From a virus (Duplodnaviria; Caudoviricetes), in the IMG/VR virus record IMGVR_UViG_3300031998_000005: 64,000 nt of DNA, one strand, 5' to 3'. Below are positions 5,738-63,942 of the stretch, one piece after another. Within the stretch, counting starts at the first letter, position 1, and each line of letters begins with the position of its first letter. The position numbers were made by a program, and so were the translations under genes. The notes under the pieces are model-generated. The model saw only the letters and a program-made list of their open reading frames with translations, had not been told where the DNA came from and searched no databases.

Positions 5738-6787
5738 TTAATACATATCGTTTTCGGAGAACTCGTTTACATCGGCTTCCATAGTATTGTAATTTACATC
5801 TATGTCCACCCAACTGCGGTCGCAATACTCACGGAATTTCTCGTAGGACACTTCCCTACGAGTAGCACCCTTATATGCGAAACCATAACGATAATAGTAT
5901 TTCATACCTGTGCCCTCAGTGCCTTCTACCACTTTGAGCATATCTTCTTTGTCCTTGACATTCTTGTTGTTCTTGGAACTATAGAACGAATAGGAATATA
6001 TCTTGGACTCAAAGTCTTTAATTTTTGCATAAGCCTTTGTAATGTCGGCAATATGCTCGTCCACATACGAGTAGTAAGACTTGTCAGCGGGCCAATCCCA
6101 TCTTATGTGACCATTTTCACTTTGGGTATTCGGAGCATCGGGATTATTTAACGTGACAAATGCAAAGTCACCATCTTTAGATATAGCCAACAGATAATAC
6201 TTTCGCTTTAACGGCTTAACGTATGCCCATTGCCAATCGCTTCCAGATTCCCAAGAAACATTACCAAGGTCAGTTTTATCTACTGCGGAATACAGATAGT
6301 TCAAGGCATCTACACAGACTTCGTAATTTTTCTTGGAAGATGATATAATGTCCTTTATAATTTTAGGAACACGGGAATCAAGTTCCGGGGGTGGCGGTAG
6401 CAGTTTCTCGCCATCGGGGGTCAATGTAAACACATTAGACCTTCCCTGTTTCTCTACGAGCATATAGCCATTTGCTACAAGTTCTTTCAATATCTTTCCC
6501 GTAATTTTAATAGGTGTCCCGATACTATCACTGATTTCTCTTGTATCGGGCTTGCTCCAACTTTTGCCTATACTCAACTTATGACAGGCGGTTATAGCAT
6601 CCATATACTTTTTATCGGAAACATTTAATTTCGGTTCATCTTTAAGCAACTCGTCAGCCTTGTCTGCCTGTTTCTGTGGAGAACCCGCAGCAACAATTTC
6701 ATCCAATTCTGCGTCAAGTGCGTCCATATAAGCGTCAGCCTCGTCCAAACGAGATTCGTGAACTTTGATTTTGAGATTGTTAGACAT
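5738..6787 (-). CDS. putative internal head (cargo) protein with a winged-helix-like segment
   Basis: Leader MSNNLKIKVHE; wHTH-like TREISDSIGTPIKITGKILKELVANGYMLVEKQGRSNVFTLTPDG. Confidence 0.6.
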   Translation of the reverse strand: MSNNLKIKVHESRLDEADAYMDALDAELDEIVAAGSPQKQADKADELLKDEPKLNVSDKKYMDAITACHKLSIGKSWSKPDTREISDSIGTPIKITGKILKELVANGYMLVEKQGRSNVFTLTPDGEKLLPPPPELDSRVPKIIKDIISSSKKNYEVCVDALNYLYSAVDKTDLGNVSWESGSDWQWAYVKPLKRKYYLLAISKDGDFAFVTLNNPDAPNTQSENGHIRWDWPADKSYYSYVDEHIADITKAYAKIKDFESKIYSYSFYSSKNNKNVKDKEDMLKVVEGTEGTGMKYYYRYGFAYKGATRREVSYEKFREYCDRSWVDIDVNYNTMEADVNEFSENDMY

Positions 6788-6807
6788 AGTTTAATCGTTC
6801 CTTTGGT

Positions 6808-7482
6808 TTAGGTGTAAGCCGTAATAACATCTTCGCCTTCCGCAGATTTCACACGTTCAACGGAACGAGTAGAACGGAGAGCGTCCAAGCACATCAGCAA
6901 AAAATCTTCACGAGAGCCTATCATCGTTTCAGCGTCTTCGGCAGTCAAGGGAATTTCATCGGGAGTAGCCCTGTATGTCGGGTTCTTGGGAAAGAATGTG
7001 TCCTTGAACTTTAACTTGGGAAACTCACGTGCAAAGGCATTAAGTTGGGCGTTATTGATGGTGTGACCCTGCAAGAACTTGCGGTCATCCGCATCTAGGA
7101 GGTAGGACTTTTCGTTCTTCTTGGAGCGAGATTCCTGCTTGTCGGATGCAGCAGGCGTGAGATTAAGCGTCTTCATAATCTTGGAGGCAATCACTTTAGG
7201 ATTCCATCCCTTTGACCGCAGGCTATATACGTTGTCCAAGCCGAACTCTAGCATCCGCTGGAAACATTCTTCCACGTCATCGGAAAGATTGCAGTCATAT
7301 GAAAGAGCGAACAGCATTTCACGTATTACGCCATTAGCGATAGCGGGTATAGTCTTCCCTGCAAACACGGGGTTGGTCCGTTCTAGTTTCTGCAAAGCCT
7401 GTTTGCCTACGGATGTGACCCCGATGAACGCCCTACCGCTCTCGGCATCTTCGTGGAGTTTGATTTTGAGATTGTTAGACAT
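6808..7482 (-). CDS. putative internal head (cargo) protein
   Basis: Start moved to MSNNLKIKLHE; internal QESRSKKNE linker. Confidence 0.6.
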   Translation of the reverse strand: MSNNLKIKLHEDAESGRAFIGVTSVGKQALQKLERTNPVFAGKTIPAIANGVIREMLFALSYDCNLSDDVEECFQRMLEFGLDNVYSLRSKGWNPKVIASKIMKTLNLTPAASDKQESRSKKNEKSYLLDADDRKFLQGHTINNAQLNAFAREFPKLKFKDTFFPKNPTYRATPDEIPLTAEDAETMIGSREDFLLMCLDALRSTRSVERVKSAEGEDVITAYT

Positions 7483-7509
7483 AGGTCGGTTGTTCTTTTG
7501 GTTCAAGTT

Positions 7510-7869
7510 TTACATCGGGAACGGAGTGCTTGCCAAGTCAATATAGAACTCGTAATTTCTGTATCGCATATCTTTGGCTCGTTGCAGACCTAGTTCCAAT
7601 GCTTCGGGATAAGTCAAGTTAATCGGGCGGGAATACTTGTCATCCAGGACATTATAGTAGCGGAACGATACACGTTCATCTTTCCTATCCCCGAACGAAA
7701 GGTCATATTCCGATGCAGGGAAAATGTCCTTGGACACGTAAATGGGCAGCGTTGCATTATAAATATCAACGTAGCCCTTCGGAGCAGGACGGGTTTTATG
7801 ATTAAGCGGGTCTTCGGATGGATGTGGTGTTCGTCTTTCGTGAACACGTATTTTGAGATTGTTCGCCAT
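7510..7869 (-). CDS. putative internal head (cargo) protein
   Basis: Leader MANNLKIRVHE. Confidence 0.6.
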   Translation of the reverse strand: MANNLKIRVHERRTPHPSEDPLNHKTRPAPKGYVDIYNATLPIYVSKDIFPASEYDLSFGDRKDERVSFRYYNVLDDKYSRPINLTYPEALELGLQRAKDMRYRNYEFYIDLASTPFPM

Positions 7870-7883
7870 AGCCTTACCTGTTA

Positions 7884-13523: not shown

Positions 13524-13790
13524 CTAGTAAAGCACGTCAATAGTCTTGTTGATGACATCACGAGCAATATAGGCATTTGCCGTTCCACCAACGGGAACAG
13601 ATGCCACAACATTCCCCTTGTAAACTATATCTACAATTTCTCCCGATGGAGATTCACGTAGAACATAGTTGATATTACTGCCCCCACGGAAACATTGGGC
13701 AAGTTCACGCAGTTTCAAAATAGTTTCTTCTGCGTTATCATCCAAGGACTCGGAGCGGTGTTCCATTACTTTGATTTTCAACTTGGACAT
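13524..13790 (-). CDS. putative internal head (cargo) protein
   Basis: Leader MSKLKIKVMEHRSES. Confidence 0.6.
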   Translation of the reverse strand: MSKLKIKVMEHRSESLDDNAEETILKLRELAQCFRGGSNINYVLRESPSGEIVDIVYKGNVVASVPVGGTANAYIARDVINKTIDVLY

Positions 13791-13795: not shown

Positions 13796-14038
13796 TTACC
13801 CTTTTTTGCGTTCGGCAGGCTTGTCGTTCGGTTCGCTAGTCACATACATCTTCTTGAACACGTAGTCAAGATACCAGGAAGACCAGCAATTCTCGCAGAA
13901 ATACTCCACGTAGATATGTTCGCCATCCCAATTTTCTTCGGGTTCGGGTGCTTTCGCTCCGCAGTGCGGGCAGAACTCATAACGAGCCATAGACATCCTT
14001 GCGTCTTCTTTCACTTTGATTTTAAGTTTGTTTGCCAT
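13796..14038 (-). CDS. putative cargo zinc-ribbon protein
   Basis: Start moved to MANKLKIKVKE; CPHC...CENC. Confidence 0.6.
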   Translation of the reverse strand: MANKLKIKVKEDARMSMARYEFCPHCGAKAPEPEENWDGEHIYVEYFCENCWSSWYLDYVFKKMYVTSEPNDKPAERKKG

Positions 14039-14056: not shown

Positions 14057-14836
14057 TTAGAAATTGTTGCGGGAAACGCCACCGAACATATTGACCATAG
14101 TATCGCACATACGGTCGTAGATGACATCTTTCAAGTCTTCCTTGGTCTTTTCAGTATCTTCCAAGCCCTGTTCGGAAATAATATCTTCAGCCATACTCTC
14201 GGCAAGACGCATCATATCGTCCACGATTTCACAGAAGATACCCGATTCGTCAGCGTATTCTTCATCAACCTTTTCATCTGCCCACGTGTAATAATCATCG
14301 GGGTAGTCATCCTTTTCGTTCTTCTTACGCAGGCTTTCCTTTTTCTTCTGCATAGAAGATTTCTTCATCTTGCTCTCTCCCGTTTTGGACTCGCCCTTGT
14401 AGTCCGACAGATATGAAATAAAGTTGTAGAAATCATCAGCCGTATGCTTATCGGACGTGAACTCTTTGTGCGTGGAAGAATGGGGGCGTTCGGGATTGAA
14501 CCCATACAGGTCAAGCGTAGCGGTATGACTATGCGGGTTAAGCCAAACATCAACTGCCCTTTCACCATCAACTTCTTCATAGCACAGGTGCAGGCAGTCG
14601 CCTATCATATCCACGTTGTTTGCCTTGGTCAGTTTGAAACCCTGCTGTGTCAAACCATTCCCAGGAGTGCCGTTGGCGATATGGGCACAATCCAACATAA
14701 AGTTTATCGCCTTTTCGGAATAATTAGGCTTTTGACCCGTATAACAACGCTTGACGAAATCACGATATGCCTCGCCAAAATTAGCGTAGTCCTGTGCTTC
14801 CGTAACAGAACGGCTCTTGATTGTAAGTTTAGACAT
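14057..14836 (-). CDS. putative two-module cargo protein
   Basis: Leader MSKLTIKSRSVTE; internal GESKTGESKMKKSSMQKKKESLRKKNE linker; acidic C-terminal module. Confidence 0.6.
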   Translation of the reverse strand: MSKLTIKSRSVTEAQDYANFGEAYRDFVKRCYTGQKPNYSEKAINFMLDCAHIANGTPGNGLTQQGFKLTKANNVDMIGDCLHLCYEEVDGERAVDVWLNPHSHTATLDLYGFNPERPHSSTHKEFTSDKHTADDFYNFISYLSDYKGESKTGESKMKKSSMQKKKESLRKKNEKDDYPDDYYTWADEKVDEEYADESGIFCEIVDDMMRLAESMAEDIISEQGLEDTEKTKEDLKDVIYDRMCDTMVNMFGGVSRNNF

Positions 14837-43486: not shown

Positions 43487-43488
43487 TT

Positions 43489-49857: not shown

Positions 49858-50292
49858 TTAAAGTTTAGACGCTGCCAAAGATACAGCCCCCGCAAGAGAA
49901 ACCATATCTTCCTTTCGTTCGTCCATAGCCTTCAGCAACTGACGGAGCGATGGAACACCCGCCAAACCGCTGTTACGATACATTTCCGCTTCGTCTTCGG
50001 GGTCAAAACCATCGGCATATTCTACAAGTTCGTCTGCCATCGCAGAAATGGTTTCAGCAAAATCTTCCCCTGCGTTCCACACCACAGAAAACGTAGCGTC
50101 ACCACCTGTAGAATAATCATAACCCGAAATCTCGGCACAGATTTCACCAGGACGATTTTCGGAAACATAAGCGGATTCAAACATCGTCCCCGCCTTTCCC
50201 ATCACACCTTCAAGCCAATCTCGGATAGCGTCATAATCGCTATAGGCTTCGTTCTTCTTGGATTCACGAACCTTAATCTTCATCTTGGACAT
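49858..50292 (-). CDS. putative cargo protein
   Basis: Leader MSKMKIKVRESKKNE. Confidence 0.6.
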   Translation of the reverse strand: MSKMKIKVRESKKNEAYSDYDAIRDWLEGVMGKAGTMFESAYVSENRPGEICAEISGYDYSTGGDATFSVVWNAGEDFAETISAMADELVEYADGFDPEDEAEMYRNSGLAGVPSLRQLLKAMDERKEDMVSLAGAVSLAASKL

Positions 50293-50304
50293 AATATATT
50301 CTCC

Positions 50305-53300
50305 TTACACAAAGTAGAACAGGTTGGAACTACGGGCAGTAATCACATACTTTTTGCCCTCGTTATCACGGAGCAGGGCACCGTTCATTCCGTAAGTTCC
50401 ACGGCTCACACCGATGGTTTCAATGCCCTTCTTGCGGAGTGCCTTGGCTTCTTCATCGGAAATGGTCGTGATGTCTTCGGCTTGACCAAAACGAGCCATA
50501 TCTTTCAGTTCCTTCTGCTTCAAGGTAAGGCTCTCGGACTTCTTGGATTCATTTCTAGGGTCATACAAAATACTTGCACGATTAAGACTAGAAATAGGCA
50601 AACTAAATTCCTTACCTGTATCTACGGACTGACCCACAAATGTGCGAGGTTTTAGTTCACGAATATACTGCTTTACCCCATCAAGACTAATCATCATACC
50701 TACAACGAATTTAGTCTTGCCGTGCTTAAAATAGTCACCATCGCTATAACAATCCTTACAGAAAGCCCGATTACCCTCTCCCCAAATAGGGTCATCTGTG
50801 GGATTGCCACAGATAGAACAGATTACAGTTGCTTTCTCGGACTTCTTGGCTTCTTCCTTGCATTCGGGCAGATAGTCGCCTTGGAAAGTCTTGGTAGTAG
50901 CATAATACCACTTGCCGTCCTTATCGCCAAAGTAAGTCTGTCCAACAAGATTGCCGTTAATATCCATAGCATAGCCCGCAGTGTGGAGCCACTGCTTATT
51001 ACGAATATCGTTGAATTGTGCAGGCGTAGTAATCTCAACTGCGTCCAACGTCTTCATCTTGTTAATAAGGTCGGCACGGCTACGATACATACGATTACCC
51101 AACTTCTTCGGGGGCAAACCTTCGGTCTGCTTGCTTTCGTCATTAGCCTTGATGTCCTTGATTACAGACGGTCCATACTTTTGCAAGTAGGCGTGATAAT
51201 CGTCCATCGTCACGATTTCTTCGTAGGCACGACTATCCTTGTCAATAACATTAGTCACGGCTGTAGAAGCCCAACGCTTTAACTTTTCGGGCAGTCTGTC
51301 TTCAAACCAATCGTAGGCGACTTGCCACATAAAGTCAGTGTCTTCCTTGTCAATAGCGTCATCCTTGCCGTAGCCATAATACTTTTTCTTGGCTTCGGTC
51401 TGCTTGCTTTCGTTAGCAGGGTGTTCCGCAATCAACTTTTTAAGGTCGGCAGTAAGGTCATCCCACAGGTCTGTCAGTTTGTCTGCGGTGTAAGCCTTAT
51501 CCCACTCACGGATAACGCCAGGACCGATACCATCTTCATCAAAATCAAGAATATACGAAGCATTATCCGTAGTGCCATCATCGCAAATACCAAGAGCCAC
51601 AAGGACACCTGTGCCATCGGGCAACCACGTATAACATTCAACGTAATCGCTACTACCATTATCGCTATCCAAAGCCTCCGTATCATCAAGACCCAAATCA
51701 GCAAGAGTATTGCACAGGTCGCTGTATGCTTCGGAACCTTCTATTTCGGGGTCGCAATAGAAATAGTTTTTAAGTGTGTCGTGTCCGTATTGGTTCTTGG
51801 CTTCGGACGGCTTACCATCTGCGAAAACCTTGCGGTCAAGATAGAAACCCGCATCGCTAGGGTCATCTGCAAAAGAAGCGGAGTCGTTAGCCATTATCCA
51901 ATCGTTCAAAAGCCCCGCAGCCTTACTCACGCTACGTTCTTCATCGTAGTAAGTCGCCAACATATTGACGAAATGATTACCTTCTTTATCAGTAACAACC
52001 TTGCCACGCTTGGCAAGCCACTTGCTAAAATTCTTGATGTAGCGTTTACGCAATAACGCCATCACGTCCTTTTCAAACTTATCCGCTTCGGGGTCGGCAT
52101 CGTAGTTCACGAAATCGCCAACCTTGAACGTAGCGTCCGCTTCGTTCTTCTTGGTCTTATCGTCCTTACAATCCTTGCCCTTACAGCCCTTGTCATCGTC
52201 ATTACCCTCGGACTTACCGCCTTCGGAGTAAATGTCAAAATGCGGACTGCCGTTCACGCCATCCATAATAGCAACGTAGTCACCATCATCACTAGAACCT
52301 GTCAGTTCGCCATTGGCGAGTTTCTTGACAAGTTTTACGGCTTTATCGCCACCCTTATGGTCAGTAGTCAGCACTATAAGCATTTTAGGTTCACGACAAA
52401 GACCAAGCGGGATTTCTTCGCCATCAATAGACACATAGTCCTGGTCAAAGCAAGAGTCTACAAAGTCATTCAGCCTTTGCAAGTATTCGTCCATAGCATC
52501 GGGGTCTTCATCCCAATTCTCGCCATACTCGTCAATAATATCCTGCAACCTGTCTGCGGGGAGGTCAAGTTGCTCACAGGCTTCATCGTGGGTCATAACC
52601 TCGGCACCACGCCAAATATCTTCGTAGGCTTCGGACTTATCGCCCTTGGCGTAGTAGTCCATCTTGTTATCAAAGGCTGCGTATCGTGCTTTCTTGCGAT
52701 AGTCGGCAGTTGTCTGCTTGTCGCTAGACGAAGCCCAATAGATGTCAAACGAGTCGCCCACAATGTCGCCATTCGGCTTTTCCTGTTCGCCTGCCATAAC
52801 AATCACTTGCACAACGCCATCATCATCCTTGTAGGAATCAGCAAGTTCTTTCGCAGCATTGATAGCGTCATCTTCGTCATAGAAAGTTTTAGCCGCCTGC
52901 ATATCGTCCAAGCCTTCCTCATCGCCATCGGCATCAATGCGAGTAAGGTCCAGGGTGAAGATGTCCTTGTTGCCCTCGGCTTCGGACTTCTTGCTTTCAT
53001 CCTTTGCGTTAAGACCAAATGTTGAAGATATGCCCAAATCGTCATCAACGCAAAGGTCAAACCACTTCTTGCCAAAGGCTTTAAGGGCATCACGGTCATT
53101 GCCGTAAACATATACGGCTTTACCACCTGGAGGCAGTCGGGGGTCTTCACCCAAGTTGCGGGCGTATTCTGCACCCTTCGCAGCGTCTTCGTTAGACGTG
53201 AACACGATGACGAAGTAATCGGAGCCTTCGGCTTTATTAGACTCGGATTTACCACCAAGGACAGCATAAATCTTACTAACAAGTTCATCATCAAAATCAG

Positions 53301-54102
53301 CCCAATTAGTGCTTTCTCCCGTTTCGTCTTGAAACTCCACGGTGCCATCGCCCCAAACATTGACTTGTCCATAAGTGTGTCCGTCGTATTCAATCGGGTC
53401 AATCATAACTGCATCGGACGAGTCCCATTCAACTTCAATGCCGTCCTTATCACGATAGCAAGAGTTTTCGTCATCCCAAGTCCAACCCGCAGCCTTGGCA
53501 GCGTAGTGGTCCATATTATACTTGGCATAATCGTCAATAGACAGACCCTCGGACTTTTTGGATTCGTTAATAATAATACCCATAGCCTTAATATCGGGGT
53601 CATTCGCCATTTCTCTATGCAAATCAAACAAAGGCTTATACTTGTCTAACAGTTCTTTAGTAAACACGGAACCCATCGTAGAATACCCTGTATCGCCAAG
53701 CATAATCTCACCAAACTTGCCAAGAGAGTTTGAGCGTATTCGCAACTTACCACCAAGTTCTTTTGCTCTCTTACGATAAGCGTCCAACGTGGCTTCGGAC
53801 TTTTTGGATTCGTTAGACATAGACCAGAACCCGAAGTCCGCTCCATCGCCTTCGCTTGCACCAAAGTAGCAACCGTCGGGAGCGATTTCATTGAGCAAGT
53901 CAGTGAGTTCATCCACGACCCATCCCATAGTTTCATCGTCAAGGTTCTTCCAATCTTCAACTTCGGGATTTTCCTTGATATATTTGTCATACTTATCCTT
54001 GCCGTAGGTCTTCAAGACACCAAGGAATTTCGGGATAAGGTCATCGGATTTGAGAGTTCCACTAGACACGGAACGGTCACGCAAGTCTTCAATGTTTGCC
54101 AT
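50305..54102 (-). CDS. 1265-aa putative cargo polyprotein with about 12 ESKKSE-type linkers
   Basis: Unrelated domains of roughly 70-140 aa separated by NESKKSE, DESKKSE, ESKQTE, KSE or KKNE. Confidence 0.65.
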   Translation of the reverse strand: MANIEDLRDRSVSSGTLKSDDLIPKFLGVLKTYGKDKYDKYIKENPEVEDWKNLDDETMGWVVDELTDLLNEIAPDGCYFGASEGDGADFGFWSMSNESKKSEATLDAYRKRAKELGGKLRIRSNSLGKFGEIMLGDTGYSTMGSVFTKELLDKYKPLFDLHREMANDPDIKAMGIIINESKKSEGLSIDDYAKYNMDHYAAKAAGWTWDDENSCYRDKDGIEVEWDSSDAVMIDPIEYDGHTYGQVNVWGDGTVEFQDETGESTNWADFDDELVSKIYAVLGGKSESNKAEGSDYFVIVFTSNEDAAKGAEYARNLGEDPRLPPGGKAVYVYGNDRDALKAFGKKWFDLCVDDDLGISSTFGLNAKDESKKSEAEGNKDIFTLDLTRIDADGDEEGLDDMQAAKTFYDEDDAINAAKELADSYKDDDGVVQVIVMAGEQEKPNGDIVGDSFDIYWASSSDKQTTADYRKKARYAAFDNKMDYYAKGDKSEAYEDIWRGAEVMTHDEACEQLDLPADRLQDIIDEYGENWDEDPDAMDEYLQRLNDFVDSCFDQDYVSIDGEEIPLGLCREPKMLIVLTTDHKGGDKAVKLVKKLANGELTGSSDDGDYVAIMDGVNGSPHFDIYSEGGKSEGNDDDKGCKGKDCKDDKTKKNEADATFKVGDFVNYDADPEADKFEKDVMALLRKRYIKNFSKWLAKRGKVVTDKEGNHFVNMLATYYDEERSVSKAAGLLNDWIMANDSASFADDPSDAGFYLDRKVFADGKPSEAKNQYGHDTLKNYFYCDPEIEGSEAYSDLCNTLADLGLDDTEALDSDNGSSDYVECYTWLPDGTGVLVALGICDDGTTDNASYILDFDEDGIGPGVIREWDKAYTADKLTDLWDDLTADLKKLIAEHPANESKQTEAKKKYYGYGKDDAIDKEDTDFMWQVAYDWFEDRLPEKLKRWASTAVTNVIDKDSRAYEEIVTMDDYHAYLQKYGPSVIKDIKANDESKQTEGLPPKKLGNRMYRSRADLINKMKTLDAVEITTPAQFNDIRNKQWLHTAGYAMDINGNLVGQTYFGDKDGKWYYATTKTFQGDYLPECKEEAKKSEKATVICSICGNPTDDPIWGEGNRAFCKDCYSDGDYFKHGKTKFVVGMMISLDGVKQYIRELKPRTFVGQSVDTGKEFSLPISSLNRASILYDPRNESKKSESLTLKQKELKDMARFGQAEDITTISDEEAKALRKKGIETIGVSRGTYGMNGALLRDNEGKKYVITARSSNLFYFV

Positions 54103-54628: not shown

Positions 54629-56275
54629 TTAGCCGTTGCTTCCGCTACCGCTACCACCATTCGGGGTGGAGGTAAGGAACACATTGACATCCGCAGCGGG
54701 GTCGGCATCCTTGGTGATGACGATACGCTGAACGAACTCGGCAACCACAGGTTCAATCGCCTTCCAAGAAGCGATAGCACGCTGCTGTTGGAACGGGTTT
54801 TCGGCAACCTGCATAGTGTCGGTGAGGAACACCGGCATATAGGTAGCACAGACCACAGGTGCTTCAAACGGAGAGTTATCACTGCTGTAAGCACAGATAA
54901 CTTCGTTCGGAGCAACGATGGCGTTGGAACGGATAACCGTGATGCCTTCGTTTTCAAGAGTGCCATACACGTGCGGGCCAACGAGGTTGGTCTGCGGTGC
55001 AAGACGGAAACCAGGCAGAGAAGCGATATACTGACAAGCGACATAGCCCGCCACAATCTTGTTGGCGTGACCCTTACCCGCACGGCTACCGATGGCGGCA
55101 GATGCAGCCTGGATAGTGTAAAGGAAGGACTGACGATGTTCAAATTCGCTGATACCAGGAGTCTTGTTGAGATTCCAAGTAATCGGCTTCCACTTGTTAG
55201 CACACTTGACGTATGCGGCAAGAATCTTCTCGCTTTCAGCCATCGCCATATGACCCGTAAGGTCAGCGAGAACTTCATCACTTGCAGCCTTGCCGAAACG
55301 CTTGTTGAACTGGAAGGACTTGAACGTGCCCATCATTTCCTTAAGACCGATGATTTCAGCAGAAACCACCTTGGAGTCAAGGGAGTATTCAATAGCAGGA
55401 ACGTCCGGTGCCTTTTCAAAGTCCACATCATAAGTCACGCCACCCTGGTAGCCACTCGGAATAGTGAGAACGAGGTCACCACCATCCTGTGCAGCAGTCA
55501 CAGCAACCTTGCCGTAGAAAGTCGGCAACTGACCAGGACCGCCACAGACACCAACGATGTCTTCAACCTTGCCATCCTTGTCCACAAGACGCACGTTAAT
55601 CGGCATATTCCAACGGAGATTGCCGACACCATACTTGATGGTAGCCTTGCCGTCTGCAGCGATGACAAACTGACGTTCGGACATATAGCCCGTCGGAGAA
55701 GCCTGCCAACCCTTGAGAGCGTTGAACGTGATAGCGTCAAAGTTCTTGGCTGCGAGAGTGGCAGCGTCCAAATCGCCTTCGCCACTATCAGCAGGGCGAC
55801 CACGAGTGTCCAACCACTTCTTCCAAGCACCCGCAAAGGTCTTGTCGCCTTCAAACTTGCCGTCAGCGTCCATCCAGCGGTCTTCGGGGAGAGTCGGCAG
55901 ACCATTCTGTGCGGTCAGCGGATAGCCGTGGGTAAAGGTCTTCTTAAAGTAAATCAGACCCTGGGATTCATCAAGCGTCTGCACACTAGCCAACTGCGGA
56001 GCGATGGAGAGTGCGTAAGTGGCACTGATAAGGTCAAGAGCCACACGGGGGAGAACGCCAAGGCTAGAAGCCGAGGAGTTTTCGTTCACGTAGGATTCGT
56101 AACGCTTATAGTTGTCCATCTGCTGACCCAAGTTGTAGCGGGCGGTAGCAGAAAGAGTGCCCTTAAAGGACGGGGATTTAGCAAGTGCTTCAAACTGCTT
56201 GCTATAACGAGCATCGTAGGATTCTACGAGGCGGTTGAATTTCTGGTTAGACATTTCTTCAACGGAAGTCTTCAT
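54629..56275 (-). CDS. major capsid protein (T4 gp23-like)
   Basis: 548 aa; IAPQLASVQTLDESQGLIYF, GKGHANKIVAG, VYGTL, VCATYMPV...ENPFQQQRAIASW motifs of the gp23 family; follows the scaffold gene. Confidence 0.88.
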   Translation of the reverse strand: MKTSVEEMSNQKFNRLVESYDARYSKQFEALAKSPSFKGTLSATARYNLGQQMDNYKRYESYVNENSSASSLGVLPRVALDLISATYALSIAPQLASVQTLDESQGLIYFKKTFTHGYPLTAQNGLPTLPEDRWMDADGKFEGDKTFAGAWKKWLDTRGRPADSGEGDLDAATLAAKNFDAITFNALKGWQASPTGYMSERQFVIAADGKATIKYGVGNLRWNMPINVRLVDKDGKVEDIVGVCGGPGQLPTFYGKVAVTAAQDGGDLVLTIPSGYQGGVTYDVDFEKAPDVPAIEYSLDSKVVSAEIIGLKEMMGTFKSFQFNKRFGKAASDEVLADLTGHMAMAESEKILAAYVKCANKWKPITWNLNKTPGISEFEHRQSFLYTIQAASAAIGSRAGKGHANKIVAGYVACQYIASLPGFRLAPQTNLVGPHVYGTLENEGITVIRSNAIVAPNEVICAYSSDNSPFEAPVVCATYMPVFLTDTMQVAENPFQQQRAIASWKAIEPVVAEFVQRIVITKDADPAADVNVFLTSTPNGGSGSGSNG

Positions 56276-56293
56276 AATGTCTTCTCCTTATGG

Positions 56294-56860
56294 TTAGGCT
56301 TTCTTGCCAATTTTGGAACGGAATTTCGCACGGGCTTCGTTGCAAGCCTTTTTACGGGCTTCGGCAGAACCCTGCTTGGATTCAGCCTTCTTCGCAGCAC
56401 GGCGGGCTTCAAGACGCTTGCGGAACGCTTCTGCACGAGCCTCATTACGGGCGGGAGCAGTAGCCTTGTTAGCAGAACGTCTGGCTTCAAGACGCTTGCG
56501 GAATGCTTCGCGGCGGGCAGCCTTGCGGGATTCTTCTGCGTCCTTGGGTTCTTCGCTACCTTCAACAGACGCAGAACCGAGAACTTCCTCTTCTTCCACA
56601 TCTTCCTTGGAGTTAGTGAGAACAGCGACAGTCACCGAGTTTTCGTTTTCCGGGTCGGGAGAAACGACAACCTGGATGTCCTTGTCTTCATCAGCGAAAA
56701 CGACTTCCGTTTCAGCAGCGTCCAACTTAACGTCGCCAACTTCAACGATGTTGTCATCTTCACGGAGTTTCTTTTCGGCTCTACGGGCTTCAAGACGCTT
56801 GCGGAAAGCAAGAGTGCGAGCCTCGTTGCGAGCAGAGATAGAGCGTTTGTGAGTAACCAT
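56294..56860 (-). CDS. putative prohead scaffold or core protein
   Basis: Start moved to MVTHKR after AAGGAG; three AFRKRLEARR repeats; immediately upstream of the MCP gene. Confidence 0.6.
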   Translation of the reverse strand: MVTHKRSISARNEARTLAFRKRLEARRAEKKLREDDNIVEVGDVKLDAAETEVVFADEDKDIQVVVSPDPENENSVTVAVLTNSKEDVEEEEVLGSASVEGSEEPKDAEESRKAARREAFRKRLEARRSANKATAPARNEARAEAFRKRLEARRAAKKAESKQGSAEARKKACNEARAKFRSKIGKKA

Positions 56861-57200: not shown

Positions 57201-58607
57201 TTAATCCTCTTCGGACCAAATTTTACGAGCGTATTCAGTTGCTTCCGCAGAACCAAAAGGAGAGCCATCCAAAGGACTACCACTCAACACGCCATCCACC
57301 CATTCTGCAAATTCATCGGCAGTTCCAGAATAACCACCAAAGCCATCCAATTCTCGCATAATGGCATACTTACCAACGATTTCGGCGGCATCAGCATCGT
57401 TAATCACAAAGTCATCGTTAGTATGCGACAAGATTTCATCACATACTGTATCTAATGCGGTTTCTGCGTTAGATACAACAAAGTGCGAAAGGCTACTCTC
57501 GTTCTTCTTGGAAACACTCTCTTTCTTCTTCTGCATAGAACAGATGTTGGACTTGCTTTCAAAACTACCCCAACCCGTTGCAGGAGTCAGTCCACTAGGA
57601 ACATCAAAGCCCTTTTCCTTAACAATCTTAATAAGTTCGGGCATATCTTGGGGGCATTCTGCCATCGCCAACCGCAGGGTATTATTAACCTGGGCTTGAT
57701 TACGAGGATTCCAATTTTTGAACATCGGGTGCATTTCTTGTAGTTTGGCAAGGCTTTCCTTCTTCTTCTGCATAGAACAGGTGTGCTTCTTGGCTTCCTT
57801 CTTCTTGGATTCATCCACATAAACAGCATTATACGGACCCATTTCCTTACCCGTAGCACCACGATAAATCATAGACAAGTCATCACGGAAACCAAATCCA
57901 GGATGCTTAAAGCCACTACCGTCTTCAGCCGTTGCACGATGACGACCGTTCTTCCAAGAATAGTTCATAATGAACTTACCGTTAGAAGTCACATCCACGG
58001 AGTCATTATCCTTCATCGTAATCTTTATCCCCATTGTGGGATATGCCTTACTGTAATAGTCCTCGTAGTCCTTCCAAAACTGCGGATTACGCCAACAAGA
58101 CATCTTACCAAAATCGGGATAGTTCTGGTGAATGTCATACAACATAAACATCTTTTCGTTTTTCTTGGCTTCCTTCTTCTTGGACTCCATCAAATCCAAA
58201 GCAGTAGTCCCTTCCTCGTTCGGCTCGCCATACTTCTTCCAAATGGCTTGGGCTTCATCGTTATACCACTTGACATCAAAATTGTCATCGGTATAAACAA
58301 CCTTGCCAACCGCCATATCGGTGTCCCAAACTTCGCCCGACTTTTCATCATAGGGCATATAGAAGTCGGAGTAGTCCATCACCATCAGATTGCGATGCTT
58401 ATAGCCAATCTTGGAACAAAGGGTGTAGCCGTCCTGCTGATACAGGTCTTCTTCTTCATCGTAGCCCTCGCCCCAACCCATAACGAAACACAACTCGGTC
58501 CCGTCATCAGTTGTTTCAAGAGTCTTCCACCACACCACCGAACCCGATGTAGTAAGGGTCTTGATAGCGGTGTTAAAGTCCTTTCCTGTAATCTTCTTCA
58601 GTGCCAT
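57201..58607 (-). CDS. putative cargo polyprotein (about 4 modules)
   Basis: Linkers MESKKKEAKKNE, DESKKKEAKKHTCSMQKKKES, FESKSNICSMQKKKESVSKKNE. Confidence 0.6.
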   Translation of the reverse strand: MALKKITGKDFNTAIKTLTTSGSVVWWKTLETTDDGTELCFVMGWGEGYDEEEDLYQQDGYTLCSKIGYKHRNLMVMDYSDFYMPYDEKSGEVWDTDMAVGKVVYTDDNFDVKWYNDEAQAIWKKYGEPNEEGTTALDLMESKKKEAKKNEKMFMLYDIHQNYPDFGKMSCWRNPQFWKDYEDYYSKAYPTMGIKITMKDNDSVDVTSNGKFIMNYSWKNGRHRATAEDGSGFKHPGFGFRDDLSMIYRGATGKEMGPYNAVYVDESKKKEAKKHTCSMQKKKESLAKLQEMHPMFKNWNPRNQAQVNNTLRLAMAECPQDMPELIKIVKEKGFDVPSGLTPATGWGSFESKSNICSMQKKKESVSKKNESSLSHFVVSNAETALDTVCDEILSHTNDDFVINDADAAEIVGKYAIMRELDGFGGYSGTADEFAEWVDGVLSGSPLDGSPFGSAEATEYARKIWSEED

Positions 58608-58626: not shown

Positions 58627-59298
58627 TTATTCGGCTTCTACGTTAATTTCCTTATATCCGTCCTTGAACGAATAAGTTTCAAACTGCTTTTTGACTTCTG
58701 CCAAGAACTTATCCGCATTCGCCTGCGTCATCTGTTCTTCGGTCAATTTCATAACCACATCCAGGTCATCTTCGGGATGGCGACCATAGGTATAGTCAAA
58801 ACTGCGACTAATACGCCCGTGAAGTGTATGTTCACGCCCAAAGTTGTAAAGCCAAATCTCGGCATAAGCGAAAATCTCGCAACCTTCGCTCCACCACTGA
58901 TTTTCAAAGTCGTAGAAGTCATCGGAACGGAGGTCGCATTCCACGCCTTCCTTCTCGCATTGTTCCTTGTAGGCATCTTCGCACTGCTCCTGCAAGTAAT
59001 CGTAGTCCTTGTCAATCTTGTCATCTGCGTAGCCTTGACCGACAATGTTGTAGGAAGTGGTCATCCAAGTCTTTTTAACACCGCCATCGTTGTGGGAGAT
59101 ATATCCGCTGTAATCATCACGCTCAATATCTTCCACACCATCACCTAGTTCATACCAGGCATCACACATACCGCCACAAGACTGATTCACGTCATAGTTT
59201 TCAAGGATTTCGGTAGCCCCGTCCTTGATAAAACTATCGTAGAACTTCGCCCCTGCGGAACCGCTAGACTCGTGAACTCGGATTTTCATTTTAGACAT
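58627..59298 (-). CDS. acidic putative cargo protein
   Basis: Leader MSKMKIRVHESS. Confidence 0.6.
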   Translation of the reverse strand: MSKMKIRVHESSGSAGAKFYDSFIKDGATEILENYDVNQSCGGMCDAWYELGDGVEDIERDDYSGYISHNDGGVKKTWMTTSYNIVGQGYADDKIDKDYDYLQEQCEDAYKEQCEKEGVECDLRSDDFYDFENQWWSEGCEIFAYAEIWLYNFGREHTLHGRISRSFDYTYGRHPEDDLDVVMKLTEEQMTQANADKFLAEVKKQFETYSFKDGYKEINVEAE

Positions 59299-59342: not shown

Positions 59343-60323
59343 TTATTTTTCAGTGAACTTGGACAGGTCGGCAGAACAAATCTCGTAAGTGCCCAAGTTG
59401 TAGTGGACTTTATCGCCCGAAGGCTTGACAATGCCCAACTCGGCAAGTTTCTGCAACAGCCTGCCGTCCATACTAGAACTTGCAAAAAATTCATTAGTGT
59501 CTAACGAATACCCAGGCAAGCACACAGAAACATCCGTATAAATCTCGCCATCGTCACACTCGGCAATCAAGGCAATACCATTCGTCATAGCGTATTGTTC
59601 CAAGCGGACCGTGAGATTATTTTCTTCCCCATAGGCTTTATACGTGAAATACTCCGTCCGCTTGCCGATAGGCAACTTACTCTTGCGAGCCTCGGCTACG
59701 CCTTCTTCAACCTTGTATTTGTTATACATTTCAATGGTCCACTGCTCGGCTTCTTCAACCGATGTGGTTTCCTTGATTTCACTACCATTAAAGTTTTCTG
59801 CAACATTGAACGTGAAAACACTTGCACTCAAACACACTTCCGCATCGGGAGAATACCAAGCGTCTACGACACCTGGAATGTCCGCAAGGTCGTTAATGTC
59901 GGACAACGAGCCAAACAATTCCCAATCCTTGCCGTTGCTATCCGCAGCAATCTGCTGCAAGGCATCACGGATAGATTCAACATCCACAAAAGCCACAAGT
60001 GCAGGAGCGGACGGCAAAACCGCCTTCTTGTATTCCTCCTGCATAACCTTTTCAACTTCTTCCCTGCTCGGACGGTCCTTAAAGGCAACCATAAGGTAAT
60101 TATCCTTTACGGTAGCCCTATCCACGTCAAGGGATATGTTTTCAATATCCCAAGCCACATCGGGGTCAAAATCCTCGGTGCCCTTGAATACCGCAAGTGC
60201 GTGTGCGGTATAACAAGACGGCAAGAAATCCCCAATTTCGTTCTTCAAGGACTGGGGAAGAAACAGGCTTTCGGCTTCCTGTTTCTTGCTCTCGTGCAAA
60301 CGGATAGACAATTTCTTGGACAT
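59343..60323 (-). CDS. putative cargo protein; C-terminal module resembles DUF4313
   Basis: Start moved to MSKKLSIRLHESKKQE; YAMTNGIALIAECDDGEIYTDVSVCLP...GIVKPSG (DUF match recalled from memory, unverified). Confidence 0.55.
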   Translation of the reverse strand: MSKKLSIRLHESKKQEAESLFLPQSLKNEIGDFLPSCYTAHALAVFKGTEDFDPDVAWDIENISLDVDRATVKDNYLMVAFKDRPSREEVEKVMQEEYKKAVLPSAPALVAFVDVESIRDALQQIAADSNGKDWELFGSLSDINDLADIPGVVDAWYSPDAEVCLSASVFTFNVAENFNGSEIKETTSVEEAEQWTIEMYNKYKVEEGVAEARKSKLPIGKRTEYFTYKAYGEENNLTVRLEQYAMTNGIALIAECDDGEIYTDVSVCLPGYSLDTNEFFASSSMDGRLLQKLAELGIVKPSGDKVHYNLGTYEICSADLSKFTEK

Positions 60324-60338
60324 TGTGATACACTCCAA

Positions 60339-60614
60339 TTACTTATATTTTTCCAACTGCTGAAAGACATAACTAAACGCATCGTTAATGCGTTCCTGCT
60401 TTCGGGCGAGATTTTCCGCAATTTCAGTAGCAGTGCCATACGCAGAATCGGCAGCACCATCTTGAATGTCTATAATACTCCCCCAAAGGGATTCTATGGG
60501 AGAGCGACTACCGATGATAGCAGAAATGTCTTTAAGTTCATCCTGCAAATTTTCAAACTCGCCCTGCAAGGACTCGTTGCTTTCGTGCAAACGGATAGAC
60601 AACTTTCTAGGCAT
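60339..60614 (-). CDS. putative cargo or core protein
   Basis: Leader MPRKLSIRLHESNES; directly after the protease gene. Confidence 0.6.
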   Translation of the reverse strand: MPRKLSIRLHESNESLQGEFENLQDELKDISAIIGSRSPIESLWGSIIDIQDGAADSAYGTATEIAENLARKQERINDAFSYVFQQLEKYK

Positions 60615-60617
60615 ACC

Positions 60618-61655
60618 TTAACCTCCAAGGATGTAAGAAATCAGGCTGCCATCATTGGCTTCGTCCTTCTTGATAGCCTTGGCTTCCAAGACCTTGAACG
60701 TCTGCGGTGCAGGCTGTTCACGCTCAATGCTTTCGTAAGTAGCACCCGCCTTGCGACGCTCCTTAACGTAATCTTCATTAAGCCCGTTCTTGTTGGCGAA
60801 TTTCAACTCACGGATAGTTTCTTCGGACATCTTGATTTCTTCCTGCAAGTCTTCCACGAACTTGACGATAGACTGCTTGATGTCCTCGGTCACCTCGGTA
60901 AAGTCTTCAAACTTATACGTGTCGTTAGAGCCGTCATCGCAGTTGGACATTTCACAGCCGTTCTTGTCAAGGCTTTCAACGATGTAGGTGCTTCCGTCAA
61001 GTTCAACGGGTGCCCCAAGTTCGTTAGCCAAGGAAAGCAGGCTTTCAGCAACACGTTCGTTCACGGATTCTTCAAGGGCTTCCTTCTTCTTGGATTCCGA
61101 AATAACCTTGGGCTGTGCGTCAAGGAAACCAGGGTCTTGAACAAAGTCAAAGCGTTCAAGTTTGTAAGTCTTGGGGTCAAGAATGTCGTTGCCATCTTCG
61201 TCCTTGCCTTCGTAGTCGCCATCGGCACGGGAACTGACATACATCGTAGTTCCTGCACGGAGAATGGTGTAAAGGGTCTTACCCATATCCGTATTGTAGA
61301 TGACCGATTCAGCAATGCCCGTCTTCCAATCAATGTTGCGGGTAATATGGGAGAACTTGCCCTCGGCAATATCTTCGTCAGTGATTTCGGCTTCGTGTCC
61401 GATACGACCGAACATCTGTCCGTTCTTGAGTTTGCGTTGCACATCTTCGTCTTGACCCGCAACTTCCCAAAGTTCTTCGGTGTAAAGACGATGATTACGG
61501 CTTACCTTGCCAGGGCAGAAATGCTGACCCTTGACAATGGCGAGAATAGTGCCGCCGCTCTTGGCAACCTCGGATTGAGCGGACTCGTCCACACGGGCAA
61601 TATCGTCCACGAACTCGCACTTAAACGGGATATAATCTTCTGCAATTTTCTGCAT
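60618..61655 (-). CDS. prohead core protease (T4 gp21-like)
   Basis: SRNHRLY, GRIGH, FSH, TDMGKTL, YVSSRADG, FDFVQDPGF motifs of the gp21 family. Confidence 0.88.
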   Translation of the reverse strand: MQKIAEDYIPFKCEFVDDIARVDESAQSEVAKSGGTILAIVKGQHFCPGKVSRNHRLYTEELWEVAGQDEDVQRKLKNGQMFGRIGHEAEITDEDIAEGKFSHITRNIDWKTGIAESVIYNTDMGKTLYTILRAGTTMYVSSRADGDYEGKDEDGNDILDPKTYKLERFDFVQDPGFLDAQPKVISESKKKEALEESVNERVAESLLSLANELGAPVELDGSTYIVESLDKNGCEMSNCDDGSNDTYKFEDFTEVTEDIKQSIVKFVEDLQEEIKMSEETIRELKFANKNGLNEDYVKERRKAGATYESIEREQPAPQTFKVLEAKAIKKDEANDGSLISYILGG

Positions 61656-61704
61656 AGTAAACTAACCTTCCTTATCTACAATAGGTGTAAATGCTACCAC
61701 AAGT

Positions 61705-62001
61705 TTATTCCTTGTAATCCATAATCTGCCTAATAAGGGCATCTGCCCATTCATCCATCGGGATTTCATCAAAAGACGAACCCCATACATCGGAGTAGAA
61801 CTCATTACTAGGTAAATCATTCATCACGTTGTTAATAAGTTTACCAAACGGACCGCTATTAAAAGAACCTAGACCTAGCATCAGTGTCCACCATCCCTCA
61901 CGTATTTTTTCAACGGCACGGATAAGGTCTTCTTTAGATTTTGGTTTTTCAAAATCTTCGTTCTGCTTGGTTTCGTGAACCTTGATAGTCATTCTACCCA
62001 T
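61705..62001 (-). CDS. putative cargo protein
   Basis: Leader MGRMTIKVHETKQNE. Confidence 0.6.
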   Translation of the reverse strand: MGRMTIKVHETKQNEDFEKPKSKEDLIRAVEKIREGWWTLMLGLGSFNSGPFGKLINNVMNDLPSNEFYSDVWGSSFDEIPMDEWADALIRQIMDYKE

Positions 62002-62005
62002 AAGG

Positions 62006-63625
62006 TTATTCTCCTAAAAATTCAATGAGATTTTCATACGGGGTTTCACCGAAATCTTCGTAGTTCAAGTAACTATCGTTAATATCATCCTTATCCCATA
62101 CAGCACGGATATTGTCTAACAACTTGCGGAGCAGTTTCTTATCATATCCTGCAAGGAACGCATTATAGAAATCAATCGCTGTAGGAATAAAGTCGGGGTC
62201 GTGTTCAAGCAACAGGTTAAGTGCTTCTTCATTATTCGTTTCGCCCACGACTCGTTTCCAATCTTCCACAAAATTCAAATCCCGTTCACTATCCCAACTA
62301 TAACGATAGGGATAACTACCATCCTTATCTGCGGGAGCATCTGTGTATTCGTCCCAACCCGCATAAAGCCACGGTTTGTCGGGTGTCGGAGCAGTTCCCG
62401 CAAAAAGTTCCTTCATAGTATCTACATCATTATTGAGAATAGCCCAACCCATAGGGTCGTGGTCATCCACGTAGAACCCATCAGCGGAACTTTCGTGTGT
62501 AACAATATCACCGCTACCATAGACAGAAGCAAGGTCAGCACCGTCGCCACGGGCTTCGGAGTGTTTAGCACGGGGCTTACGAGTAGCCCGCTTTACATTT
62601 CTTACAAAGTCATCCCACGAATCCCCTGGGTGCTTACGAACGCCTGCTGAAATACCTTTAAGAACAATATCCAAATCGTCCAAAGTATCACAAGTCATAT
62701 GCTGATGACCATACATAATGAAAGACACTTCATAATGCGTTTGAATATCACTAGAACCACCAAGACCCGTGAAAGTTTCAGTGTAGATAATGACTTCGCC
62801 ATAGGGAGAATTATAAACTATCTTCTGCTTTTTCGGGTCAATCTTGGCATCGGGGCTGTATTTCTGTGCGACTTTAAGAGCGTCCTGCAACGCCTTACGG
62901 TCCTTGGCATACATACTGCGATAAGGTGCTTGGTCGCCTGTGCGTTCAAGTTCATCGTCATCAAAGACGGATTCGGTAGGCTTTTCGTTCTTACGTCCGA
63001 CCACGCCTGTCGGTGCGACCCCAAGCGATGATGCAGATGCACCATCTTCGTTCTTAAAACCCTTGGACTTCTTCCAAACCGCATATTCGGACGGGTCATC
63101 AATCTTTGCAATAACCCCGTGGAAACCATCAGTTACCATATTGAACCAATCCTTCACAATCAGTTCAATCGCATCGTAAGCCATATCAAACGGCTCGTCC
63201 TGCAAGCCTTGATTTACAACCGCCACAATGGGTTCTGCACCAACTACGTGAATATCAAGAAGATGGGAGTCCGTGCCCTTACTATAAACGGAGTGGCAAG
63301 CGTCTTCATCCTTACGATAATCCGACTTGACATAGAAATACTTACCGCTCGGATTGTCAAACCCACGGATAAACAATCCCTTAATCACAGCGTTCAAGTC
63401 ATCCCATTGGTTAGACAAATCCACATCGTCCAAGACAGATTCCGAAATCTTCGTAGCAGAACGGATAGGAGCGGTCACACTTGCAAGGTCGCCAAAGTCG
63501 CCATAAGTGCGGGGGAGCAAGGATTCATAACGAGCCTGGGCTTCGTCCTTGTCCTTAAAGGCTTCAACTTTCTTCTTGCCGAAGAAATCCGTATAGGAAA
63601 TAGTCCAATTAAGTCCTTTTGTCAT
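62006..63625 (-). CDS. putative cargo polyprotein
   Basis: 539 aa; candidate linkers KISES, KNED, RKNEKPTES, KHSEA. Confidence 0.5.
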   Translation of the reverse strand: MTKGLNWTISYTDFFGKKKVEAFKDKDEAQARYESLLPRTYGDFGDLASVTAPIRSATKISESVLDDVDLSNQWDDLNAVIKGLFIRGFDNPSGKYFYVKSDYRKDEDACHSVYSKGTDSHLLDIHVVGAEPIVAVVNQGLQDEPFDMAYDAIELIVKDWFNMVTDGFHGVIAKIDDPSEYAVWKKSKGFKNEDGASASSLGVAPTGVVGRKNEKPTESVFDDDELERTGDQAPYRSMYAKDRKALQDALKVAQKYSPDAKIDPKKQKIVYNSPYGEVIIYTETFTGLGGSSDIQTHYEVSFIMYGHQHMTCDTLDDLDIVLKGISAGVRKHPGDSWDDFVRNVKRATRKPRAKHSEARGDGADLASVYGSGDIVTHESSADGFYVDDHDPMGWAILNNDVDTMKELFAGTAPTPDKPWLYAGWDEYTDAPADKDGSYPYRYSWDSERDLNFVEDWKRVVGETNNEEALNLLLEHDPDFIPTAIDFYNAFLAGYDKKLLRKLLDNIRAVWDKDDINDSYLNYEDFGETPYENLIEFLGE

Positions 63626-63636
63626 ACAAGCGACCC

Positions 63637-63942
63637 CTAGCGGTTATGAACCTTGATTTTAAGATGACTTTCAGTCTTGCCATTACCCAGGCTTTCAAGA
63701 TACTCAATCATAGCATCGCAAAATTCTGCAATCCGCAGTTCATCATAGGAACGTGGAGCGAACGAATCGCCATACAACGCATCTATAGCAGGGACATCTT
63801 CGCAGGCTTGGTTGAACCAACCACCATACTCGTTCTCACGCCCAGGAATTACAACGGCATCGGAGTTTATAAGGGTTTCGTTGAACCCATCACGCATTTT
63901 CTTAAAGCCGTCTATAAGTTCTTGTTTCGTAATGTTAGACAT
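63637..63942 (-). CDS. putative cargo protein with a C-terminal tag
   Basis: Ends in KTESHLKIKVHNR. Confidence 0.55.
   Translation of the reverse strand: MSNITKQELIDGFKKMRDGFNETLINSDAVVIPGRENEYGGWFNQACEDVPAIDALYGDSFAPRSYDELRIAEFCDAMIEYLESLGNGKTESHLKIKVHNR

Follow-up and report, generated by a model that had tools for sequence, protein, structure and literature searches.

A glutamate-terminated leader on twenty proteins of an uncultured phage, a putative analogue of the T4 capsid-targeting sequence

The internal proteins IPI, IPII and IPIII of phage T4 carry the capsid-targeting sequence (CTS) MKTYQEFIAE, which the prohead protease gp21 removes (Mullaney and Black, 1996, reviewed in PMC9026906 and PMC3012670). 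Among its ten residues, positions 8 and 10 govern processing by gp21, while positions 4 and 7 govern targeting (PMC9026906). Cleavage after glutamate is also known for the gp245 protease of SPN3US, one of the giant phiKZ-like phages (PMC10052503), and polyvalent proteins of phages and conjugative elements have been described by Iyer, Burroughs, Anand, de Souza and Aravind in 2017 (PMC5512222). Here we analyse a short N-terminal leader, ending in Glu, that is shared by otherwise dissimilar proteins encoded in a stretch of 64,000 nucleotides of phage DNA (from IMG/VR record IMGVR_UViG_3300031998_000005; hereafter the window). An earlier note, made from the letters alone, had listed twelve such leaders and proposed that they direct a large set of injected proteins into the capsid. 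Our comparisons suggest that the leader is probably a removable N-terminal propeptide working like the T4 CTS.

The window corresponds, in reverse complement, to positions 146370-210369 of one virus record of 215,686 bp, 99% complete, whose source is an uncultured phage of the gut or rumen. No GenBank phage was matched when 10 kb of its head region was compared by megablast, and the nearest capsid proteins from cultured phages, 25-34% identical, belong to a few myoviruses (Acinetobacter phage Ab1-TPeters, Ralstonia phage RP13 and the Rhizobium RHph_TM30 group). The close relatives, with capsid proteins 90-94% identical, are metagenomic contigs only, one of which is a contig of 213 kb (G001).

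Occurrence and composition of the leader

Run over the whole genome, the pattern of the earlier reader retrieved 18 open reading frames (ORFs), and a looser scan together with a position-weight matrix added MSNMKITLHE and MDMPFTIKVHE. The tagged set is thus even larger than the twelve listed at the outset, amounting to 20 N-terminal tags genome-wide with one C-terminal copy besides. All 20 ORFs start with ATG on the same strand as the head genes, in a block at 99-213 kb mostly transcribed that way, and eight of them form a cluster at genome 100-108 kb. Translation in all six frames yields 15 matches to the strict core [LMKT][KST]I[KR][VL][HRKM]E. All of them begin 4-6 residues past an ATG, and none lies inside a protein. 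About one leader match is expected by chance in the genome, against the 20 found. In 30 codon-block shuffles of the genome, the loose pattern matched 0-3 times as opposed to 18 times in the real sequence. The bodies behind the leaders were said to be unrelated, and all-against-all BLASTP of the 18 first-pattern proteins with the leader removed indeed returned nothing better than E = 0.01.

The leader follows the consensus M-x-x-(M/L)-(K/T/S)-I-(K/R)-(V/L)-H-E. Its length up to the Glu is 10 residues in nine ORFs, 11 in eight, and 9, 12 and 13 in one each. When the residues are numbered from a cut behind this Glu, P1 is Glu in 20 of 20 leaders, P2 is His in 14, and P3 is Val in 13, Leu in five, Ile in one and Thr in one, so that 19 of the 20 end in V/L/I-x-Glu as in the rule of T4 gp21; P1' is Ser in 11. 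The leader is basic, and the mature bodies are all acidic, with isoelectric points of 4.1-6.9 (median of all ORFs, 6.3). Because SKKxE or a close variant directly follows the leader Glu in four tagged proteins, the leader overlaps there with a linker motif to which we return below.

The leader is clearly selected at the peptide level. Upstream of the tagged start codons only a Shine-Dalgarno-like GGAG is held in common and otherwise no conserved DNA, and the leader codons vary at synonymous sites. Within the peptide, the upstream (M/L)KIK core is conserved as strongly as the V-H-E at the putative cut site. The codons are nevertheless skewed relative to a set of head-module genes, with AAA at 66% vs 20%, ATC at 81% vs 39%, GTT at 85% vs 36% and CAC at 93% vs 62%.

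The twelve leaders first listed were all recovered, each on an ATG-started ORF of the window's minus strand and with the peptide originally given. Three ORFs lie side by side at 5738..6787 (349 amino acids, aa; MSNNLKIKVHE), 6808..7482 (224 aa; MSNNLKIKLHE) and 7510..7869 (119 aa; MANNLKIRVHE). Another three are found at 13524..13790 (88 aa; MSKLKIKVME), 13796..14038 (80 aa; MANKLKIKVKE, with a zinc-ribbon-like CxxC motif in the body) and 14057..14836 (259 aa), the last having the divergent leader MSKLTIKSRSVTE and, at about residue 162, an internal junction of a second type, SSMQKKKESLRKKNE. A divergent leader, MSKMTIKNHTTE, also opens the 559-aa ORF at 45141..46820, which has an internal ESKKSE at residue 83 and whose homologues in close relatives start with MSKMTIKNHMNE (contig L002) or MSLKIKTHKFE (G001, about 70% identical). 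The 144-aa ORF at 49858..50292 begins with MSKMKIKVRE followed at once by SKKNE, the two jointly forming an ESKKNE linker. The remaining four tagged genes flank the protease gene, as had been noticed. They are the 98-aa ORF at 61705..62001 (MGRMTIKVHE) directly upstream of it, the 91-aa ORF at 60339..60614 (MPRKLSIRLHE) directly downstream, the 326-aa ORF at 59343..60323 (MSKKLSIRLHE, then SKKQE) and the 223-aa ORF p223 at 58627..59298 (MSKMKIRVHE).

Junctions, linkers and the prohead protease

When p223 was used as the query against 1.8 billion representative proteins, 11 relatives sharing the domain F(Y/W)D.FI...A.E(I/L)L..Y(D/E).N were retrieved. The sequence in front of this domain differs from one relative to the next. 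It is MSKMKIRVHE↓S in the phage studied here (the arrow marks the junction), MSKMTIKVHE↓S in P0077 and ..YKMKKLHE↓S in P0075. In P0074 and P0080 the domain follows a second type of leader (..CSMQKKIESFKKNE↓S or ..KKKESLSKKSE↓S), within the 514-aa P0076 it follows ..RGKKSE↓T, and within P0078, whose own N-terminus is MSHMRIKVRE, and P0082 it follows ..ESKKNE↓A. The G001 homologue is located inside a polyprotein, after ..NESKKSE↓S. Leader-like sequences are also used as internal linkers, namely KMKKLHE↓S and GRMLHE↓S in P0075 and P0079. In most of the p223 homologues having an N-terminal extension, the junction Glu is aligned.

Other tagged families gave the same picture. The G001 homologue of the tagged ORF at genome 100505 lies within a polyprotein, after ..ESRKKRSE↓A; for another tagged ORF, at genome 107318, the G001 homologue is preceded by MAKITE↓R, a leader of reduced length. 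A tagged 328-aa protein (genome 104222) belongs to a ParB/Srx-like family with at least 164 homologues among metagenomic phage proteins. Within the clade, its members either have a leader, such as MSFKIKVKE, MGFKIKVKE, MSSLKIKVRE or MKIHVNE, or are joined internally through ..E↓SYYS.GNRDG. Where the tag is missing, the orthologue starts just where the mature protein is predicted to begin (MNAYSLG.., MASFYSKG..). No leader is present in the homologues from other clades, whose identity does not exceed 40%. The alignment of the Glu across leader, linker and untagged forms thus marks it as a fixed domain boundary whose upstream part is exchangeable, which is what would be predicted for a protease site preceded by a disposable propeptide. 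On these alignments, the Glu is very likely a protease cut site.

The upstream part tracks the phage lineage rather than the cargo. Next to proteases 62% identical to the one in the window, unrelated small ORFs start with MIIKVHE and MIIRVHE; at 54% identity the leaders are MAMKIRVRE, MTMKIKVNE, MALIKVRE and MAVIKVNGMKNE, and at 47-50% they are MLRIKLIE and MKINLVSKTNE. G001 has about 18 leaders of its own. The DNA pattern of the exact leader was found in only three IMG/VR contigs and five JGI metagenome contigs, all from one small clade, so the exact MSKMKIKVHE tag is not widespread in these two collections. A shared leader was absent from the head modules of Acinetobacter phage Ab1-TPeters and Rhizobium phage RHph_TM30. 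The proposal that the phage has a tag of its own, unlike that of T4, is therefore borne out to the extent that the leader is lineage-specific and under selection, with 10-11 residues and a P3-hydrophobic/P1-Glu ending as in the T4 CTS.

The linker motif ES[KR]K.E occurs 15 times in the genome, whereas about 0.1 occurrences would be expected from composition by our estimate. It is confined to five leader-tagged proteins, the protease and three polyproteins without N-terminal leader, all on the minus strand. The 1265-aa polyprotein (50305..54102) contains four strict ESKKSE linkers and several looser ones, the 468-aa polyprotein (57201..58607) two ESKKKE linkers and two CSMQKKKES junctions, and the 489-aa polyprotein (47668..49137) one ESKKNE and one ESKKPE linker. 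A second element, (K/R)x(C/S)SMQKK(I/K)ES(L/V)..KK.E, is present seven times in the genome. It opens three minus-strand ORFs, with MKKFKCSMNKKIESLAKNKRSE in the 230-aa ORF at 49150-49842, MTKFRCSMQKKIESL.. at 22227-23054 and MSFVCSMQKKKESLAKVAE at 7884-8297. It also joins modules within four proteins, including those at 57201-58607(-) and 14057-14836(-), one of the four being encoded on the opposite strand at genome 5288-6238. In other phages this second element precedes the same domain as the KIKVHE leader does here. Domain shuffling can be seen in a tagged G001 protein (64282-65289), which merges the modules of genome 108281-108790 and 159787-160062; in the phage described here, one of them lies inside a 591-aa tagged protein and the other forms the C-terminus of the 1265-aa polyprotein. 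A Pfam search found no domain in the beads-on-a-string ORFs beside the head genes, and polyvalent-protein domain families were not detected by it.

The protease gene lies in the head and tail module on the window's minus strand, together with the genes for the capsid protein and the tail sheath (41222-43486). The earlier note had called its product gp21-like, and profile searches agree with this assignment to the gp21 (S77) family. The 345-aa protein (60618..61655) matches PHROG 207 at 1.6e-21, its direct Pfam S77 score of 21 bits lies under the 27-bit cut-off, and its homologues in metagenomes, of which at least 73 were found at 93% to 31% identity, include proteins with precomputed PF03420 assignments. 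Since phmmer with the single protease sequence found no match among PDB sequences (nor did the capsid protein), a family profile was required. A profile of 23 homologues matched in the PDB only T4 gp21 (5jbl), with E = 3.8e-4. His87 and Ser142 are invariant in these 23 sequences, His87 falling in the "GELN.P" segment of gp21 and the serine of VSSRA on VASRG. The protease itself carries ESKKKE at residue 187, where the catalytic domain gives way to a C-terminal extension of about 150 residues, and in P0072 a 31%-identical protease is fused to a scaffold domain.

The major capsid protein (54629..56275, minus strand, 548 aa) is gp23-like, with a Pfam Gp23 score of 38.8 bits, and its residues 62-65 are Y-V-N-E. 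In T4 gp23, the cut follows Glu65. A cut of the capsid propeptide at Y-V-N-E65↓N is probable from the alignment, as Glu is kept at the aligned position in three of four relatives, including two cultured phages, and lies within V-x-E in two. Just upstream of the capsid gene, the 188-aa scaffold-like ORF p188 (56294..56860, minus strand) starts with MVTHKRSISARNE and contains three ARNEA..AFRKRLEARR repeats, each with a possible Glu↓Ala cut site; at this locus a plain listing of ATG-started ORFs gives a 109-aa ORF in a different frame. The ORF at the scaffold position in distant relatives, with proteases 47-50% identical, begins with MGIKVLKEFSGRKSE or MSIKIIKQFSGKKNE. In distant relatives, a gene for GTP cyclohydrolase I was also seen just upstream of the protease gene (L012:9007-9696, L036:9230-9919 and L037:9231-9920); as called, its product starts with (L)ERKYEITE or (L)KRKYEITE, which is either a leader-like start or a miscalled start codon. 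The 539-aa ORF at 62006-63625 (minus strand) was considered as the portal and rejected, as it has no Pfam or PHROG match and resembles a polyprotein; the real portal is located outside the window. The ORF contains Glu↓Ser or Glu↓Ala sites in several places, IVTHE↓S and KISE↓S among them. Antisense to the structural genes run very long open frames of up to 1094 aa (plus strand, 40664-43948, 54788-56932, 59595-61724 and 48865-50655), which are shadow ORFs. TTA, CTA and TCA, the complements of stop codons, each occur only about once per 1000 codons in the structural genes.

A single protein carries the leader core elsewhere than at its N-terminus. The 101-aa ORF at 63637..63942 (minus strand) ends in ..GNGKTE↓SHLKIKVHNR-stop, and its 69%-identical orthologue retains ..GKSE↓SHLKIKVHNR-stop. 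Two chance-like matches aside, this is the sole non-N-terminal instance of the core in the genome. A docking peptide that is clipped off would be expected to have its cut site after an N-terminal copy and before a C-terminal one, and this single case fits that expectation.

Function of the leader and competing explanations

We propose that the basic, strand-prone (L/M)-K-I-K-V-H core would dock the newly made protein on the assembling prohead core, with the scaffold-like protein or the C-terminal extension of the protease as its likely partner. The gp21-family protease, once activated within the prohead, would then cut behind the Glu, at sites with V/L/I at P3, E at P1 and mostly Ser at P1', and the acidic mature protein would be freed in the head, where it could remain with the DNA or leave with it at infection. 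Further substrates of the same protease would be the ESKKxE linkers, the second leader CSMQKK..KKxE, the scaffold-like protein, the capsid protein at VNE65 and, at its ESKKKE site, the protease itself. That this enzyme does the cutting we infer from its homology and from what is known of T4. By analogy with T4, the tag is rather more likely than otherwise to address its proteins to the prohead, whereas the delivery of most tagged proteins into the host, for which the same analogy speaks, is somewhat doubtful. Some of the tagged proteins encoded next to the protease gene may be parts of the prohead core and not injected effectors.

Pfam and PHROGs gave no above-threshold match for any of the 20 tagged proteins, and for these and 10 neighbours the hints were all sub-threshold (a DUF6293_C winged helix, DUF4313 and ParBc_2). 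The tagged 328-aa protein, encoded outside the window at L035:5222-6208 (genome 104222-105208), has an invariant DGHHRW motif, and 25 of 41 members of its family match Pfam ParBc_2 weakly. In a Foldseek search, its model gave top matches mostly to ParB, Noc and sulfiredoxin (best E = 2e-3, probability 0.99), and the protein is thus modelled with a ParB/Srx-like fold. The processed form of DdrB, a ParB-like protein of phage P1, enters the P1 head (PMC5512222). AlphaFold (AF2) models of two tagged proteins were confident (pLDDT 87 and 88.5). Their low-confidence or disordered parts comprise residues 1-26 in the first and exactly residues 1-10 in the second, p223, and contain the leader, which therefore lies outside the fold in these models. 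No convincing fold match was obtained for the p223 model (pLDDT 88.5), for which Foldseek gave at best E = 0.05 and VIA a Z-score of at most 6.7, at noise level. For the 349-aa tagged protein, ESM Atlas search scores of at most 0.80 gave a weak winged-helix lead only.

The main competing explanation, to which we attribute a low probability, takes the tag as nothing but a processing junction of polyprotein-style expression, with trimming possibly in the cytoplasm and no addressing role. The interchange of leader, second leader and ESKKxE linker before the same domains would suit this explanation, as would the leader-like internal linkers of P0075 and P0079 and the polyproteins that have no leader. 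A single-domain protein, however, would gain nothing from a ten-residue piece that is merely removed, and a junction does not account for the (M/L)KIK core being as conserved as V-H-E. Moreover, the conserved C-terminal copy retains the core with the cut site before it, and gp21-type proteases act in the prohead, as known from T4 (PMC9026906).

Another improbable explanation accepts the head as destination and takes the tagged proteins as parts of the prohead core or inner body, which are degraded or stay in the head and are not injected effectors. The four tagged genes around the protease gene are at the place of the T4 core genes 67, 68 and 22, the scaffold-position protein of distant relatives begins similarly (MSIKIIKQ.. 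or MGIKVLKE..), and the 559-aa tagged protein has its homologues of about 70% identity in close relatives. Against this, 14 of the 20 tagged genes are distant from the head module, in ORFan-rich regions, and the ParB/Srx-like protein and the weak winged-helix lead are effector-like and not structural. Furthermore, only 8 of 19 tagged genes (42%) have a homologue in G001, the relative with a 91%-identical capsid protein, compared with 68% of other ORFs (p = 0.04, with a crude gene set contaminated by antisense shadow ORFs).

A role of the tag in enhancing translation initiation, as a relative of MSKIK or as an A-rich 5' coding region of low structure raising the yield of small genes, is very improbable. 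MSK(M/L)KIK does resemble MSKIK, which boosts protein production in Escherichia coli (PMC10192921), and AAA is among the codons enriched in the leaders. This explanation leaves the invariant Glu and the preceding V/L-H unaccounted for, as well as the interchange with internal linkers at a fixed junction and the confinement of ESKKxE to the same proteins and the protease. The C-terminal copy, which is conserved, cannot influence initiation and therefore speaks against a purely translation-initiation role. Lastly, we give hardly any credence to a tag read by another machine, be it a modifying enzyme (RiPP-like), a secretion route or a degradation system, given that no radical-SAM gene (PF04055) was found in the 99%-complete genome while 14 of 14 control genomes matched, that the leader is charged and not hydrophobic and hence no Sec or lipoprotein signal, and that it ends in the motif of the head protease, with four tagged genes flanking the protease gene.

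Several observations weigh against a removable propeptide directing proteins into the head. The case for cutting comes from comparison only, and that for targeting from the analogy and the one C-terminal copy. At P3, the ESKKxE linkers carry Lys instead of V/L/I, so the protease rule would have to be broader than V/L-x-E or there would be two classes of site, and the polyproteins, being without leader, would need another route of entry. T4 IPII and IPIII are basic DNA-binding proteins, unlike the mature bodies here, which are all acidic. The codon skew means that shared DNA ancestry, gene conversion or selection at the level of an A-rich start or the mRNA may contribute to the conservation of the leader. 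The turnover of tagged genes is only modestly above that of other ORFs, a weak signal on which we do not rely.

The promoter sequence adds a further point of this kind. A sigma-70-type promoter with 11 of 12 consensus positions lies at 8624-8596(-), upstream of the tagged three-gene cluster 7869-5738, which lies apart from the head module, and such a near-consensus sequence suggests that this cluster is transcribed by the host RNA polymerase, perhaps early in infection. The operon behind it comprises an 84-aa ORF, one ORF with the second leader and three with the first, followed by a terminator at 5676-5661, and a comparable promoter immediately precedes the eight-gene tagged cluster of genome 100-108 kb. 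These promoters form a near-consensus family (TTGACA, 17 nt, TATATT) that is often flanked by conserved CCTATTGACA..GGTATTTTGTTATATT; besides 8624-8596, its minus-strand sites in the window include 13429-13401 and 5431-5403, and about nine more lie on the same genome strand.

Beyond a head-directing, removable leader, a wider reading can be formulated, which we regard as speculative and rather unlikely to hold as a whole. A grammar of four junction elements, N-terminal KIKVHE, C-terminal E↓SHLKIKVHNR, CSMQKK..KKxE and ESKKxE, might allow any domain to be loaded, alone or as part of a polyprotein, with one protease releasing all of them, and the virion might carry at least 40 different acidic modules, which would enter the host along with the DNA as a first-strike counter-defence set. 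Its modules would include the ParB/Srx-like enzyme and possibly winged-helix proteins, and the core would dock by strand pairing on the C-terminal extension of the protease or on the scaffold.

Comparison with described systems

In SPN3US, many head and ejection proteins are likewise cut after Glu by a T4-like prohead protease, which removes its own C-terminal part. The propeptides there are mostly 111-254 residues long, with two short ones of 20 and 24 residues, and each is specific to its protein, whereas a short leader is shared here. The polyvalent proteins resemble the present system in that unrelated effector-type domains, ParB-like ones among them, are strung together in the products of genes close to those of the virion, with packaging and injection as their predicted fate. 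They differ from it in that the modules here are separated by a short repeated ESKKxE linker fitting the Glu rule of the head protease, and also occur singly behind the leader. Herpesvirus assemblin, whose maturation sites are (V/L)-x-Ala↓Ser, belongs to a protease fold class related to gp21 and shares Val or Leu at P3 and Ser at P1', with Ala at P1 in place of the Glu found here.

The closest likeness is to T4. In each phage, unrelated proteins begin with a peptide of about ten residues in which position 8 (P3) is hydrophobic and position 10 (P1) is Glu. Each also encodes a protease of the gp21 family and a gp23-like capsid protein that has a site of the Glu65 type. As in T4, some tagged genes belong to the head module and others do not, and relatives differ in which proteins are tagged. 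By inspection, however, the leader has no sequence similarity to MKTYQEFIAE, being basic with an alternating KIKVH, and 20 proteins are tagged compared with the three internal proteins of T4. The tag here can be exchanged for two other junction elements or for polyprotein linkers, has a C-terminal copy and precedes acidic bodies. The host and clade are also different, as this is an uncultured gut or rumen phage whose capsid protein is at most 34% identical to that of any cultured phage. Judged by its sequence, the leader would be an analogue of the T4 CTS or a much-diverged version of it, and not a sequence homologue.

The concept of loading proteins into the head and then clipping off their signal is already published for T-even phages. 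What is new here is an unrelated tag sequence in a distant uncultured clade, with 20 tagged proteins in one genome, and the demonstration that tag, second tag and polyprotein linker are equivalent at a single Glu, together with the C-terminal copy. If our reading is true, a simple sequence rule would flag candidates for virion-delivered proteins, likely early counter-defence factors, among the ORFans of uncultured phages, and the way in which tag and linker replace each other before a fixed Glu junction would allow protease sites to be mapped comparatively, without proteomics. The leader would also be a second, unrelated ten-residue address and a candidate for packaging foreign proteins in phage heads. 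The signal that T4 uses to load proteins into its head and clips off would then be a general device, either re-invented or diverged beyond recognition in this distant clade of large gut or rumen phages, where it would mark some 20 proteins per genome and have its junction in common with polyprotein linkers, and no peculiarity of the T-even phages.

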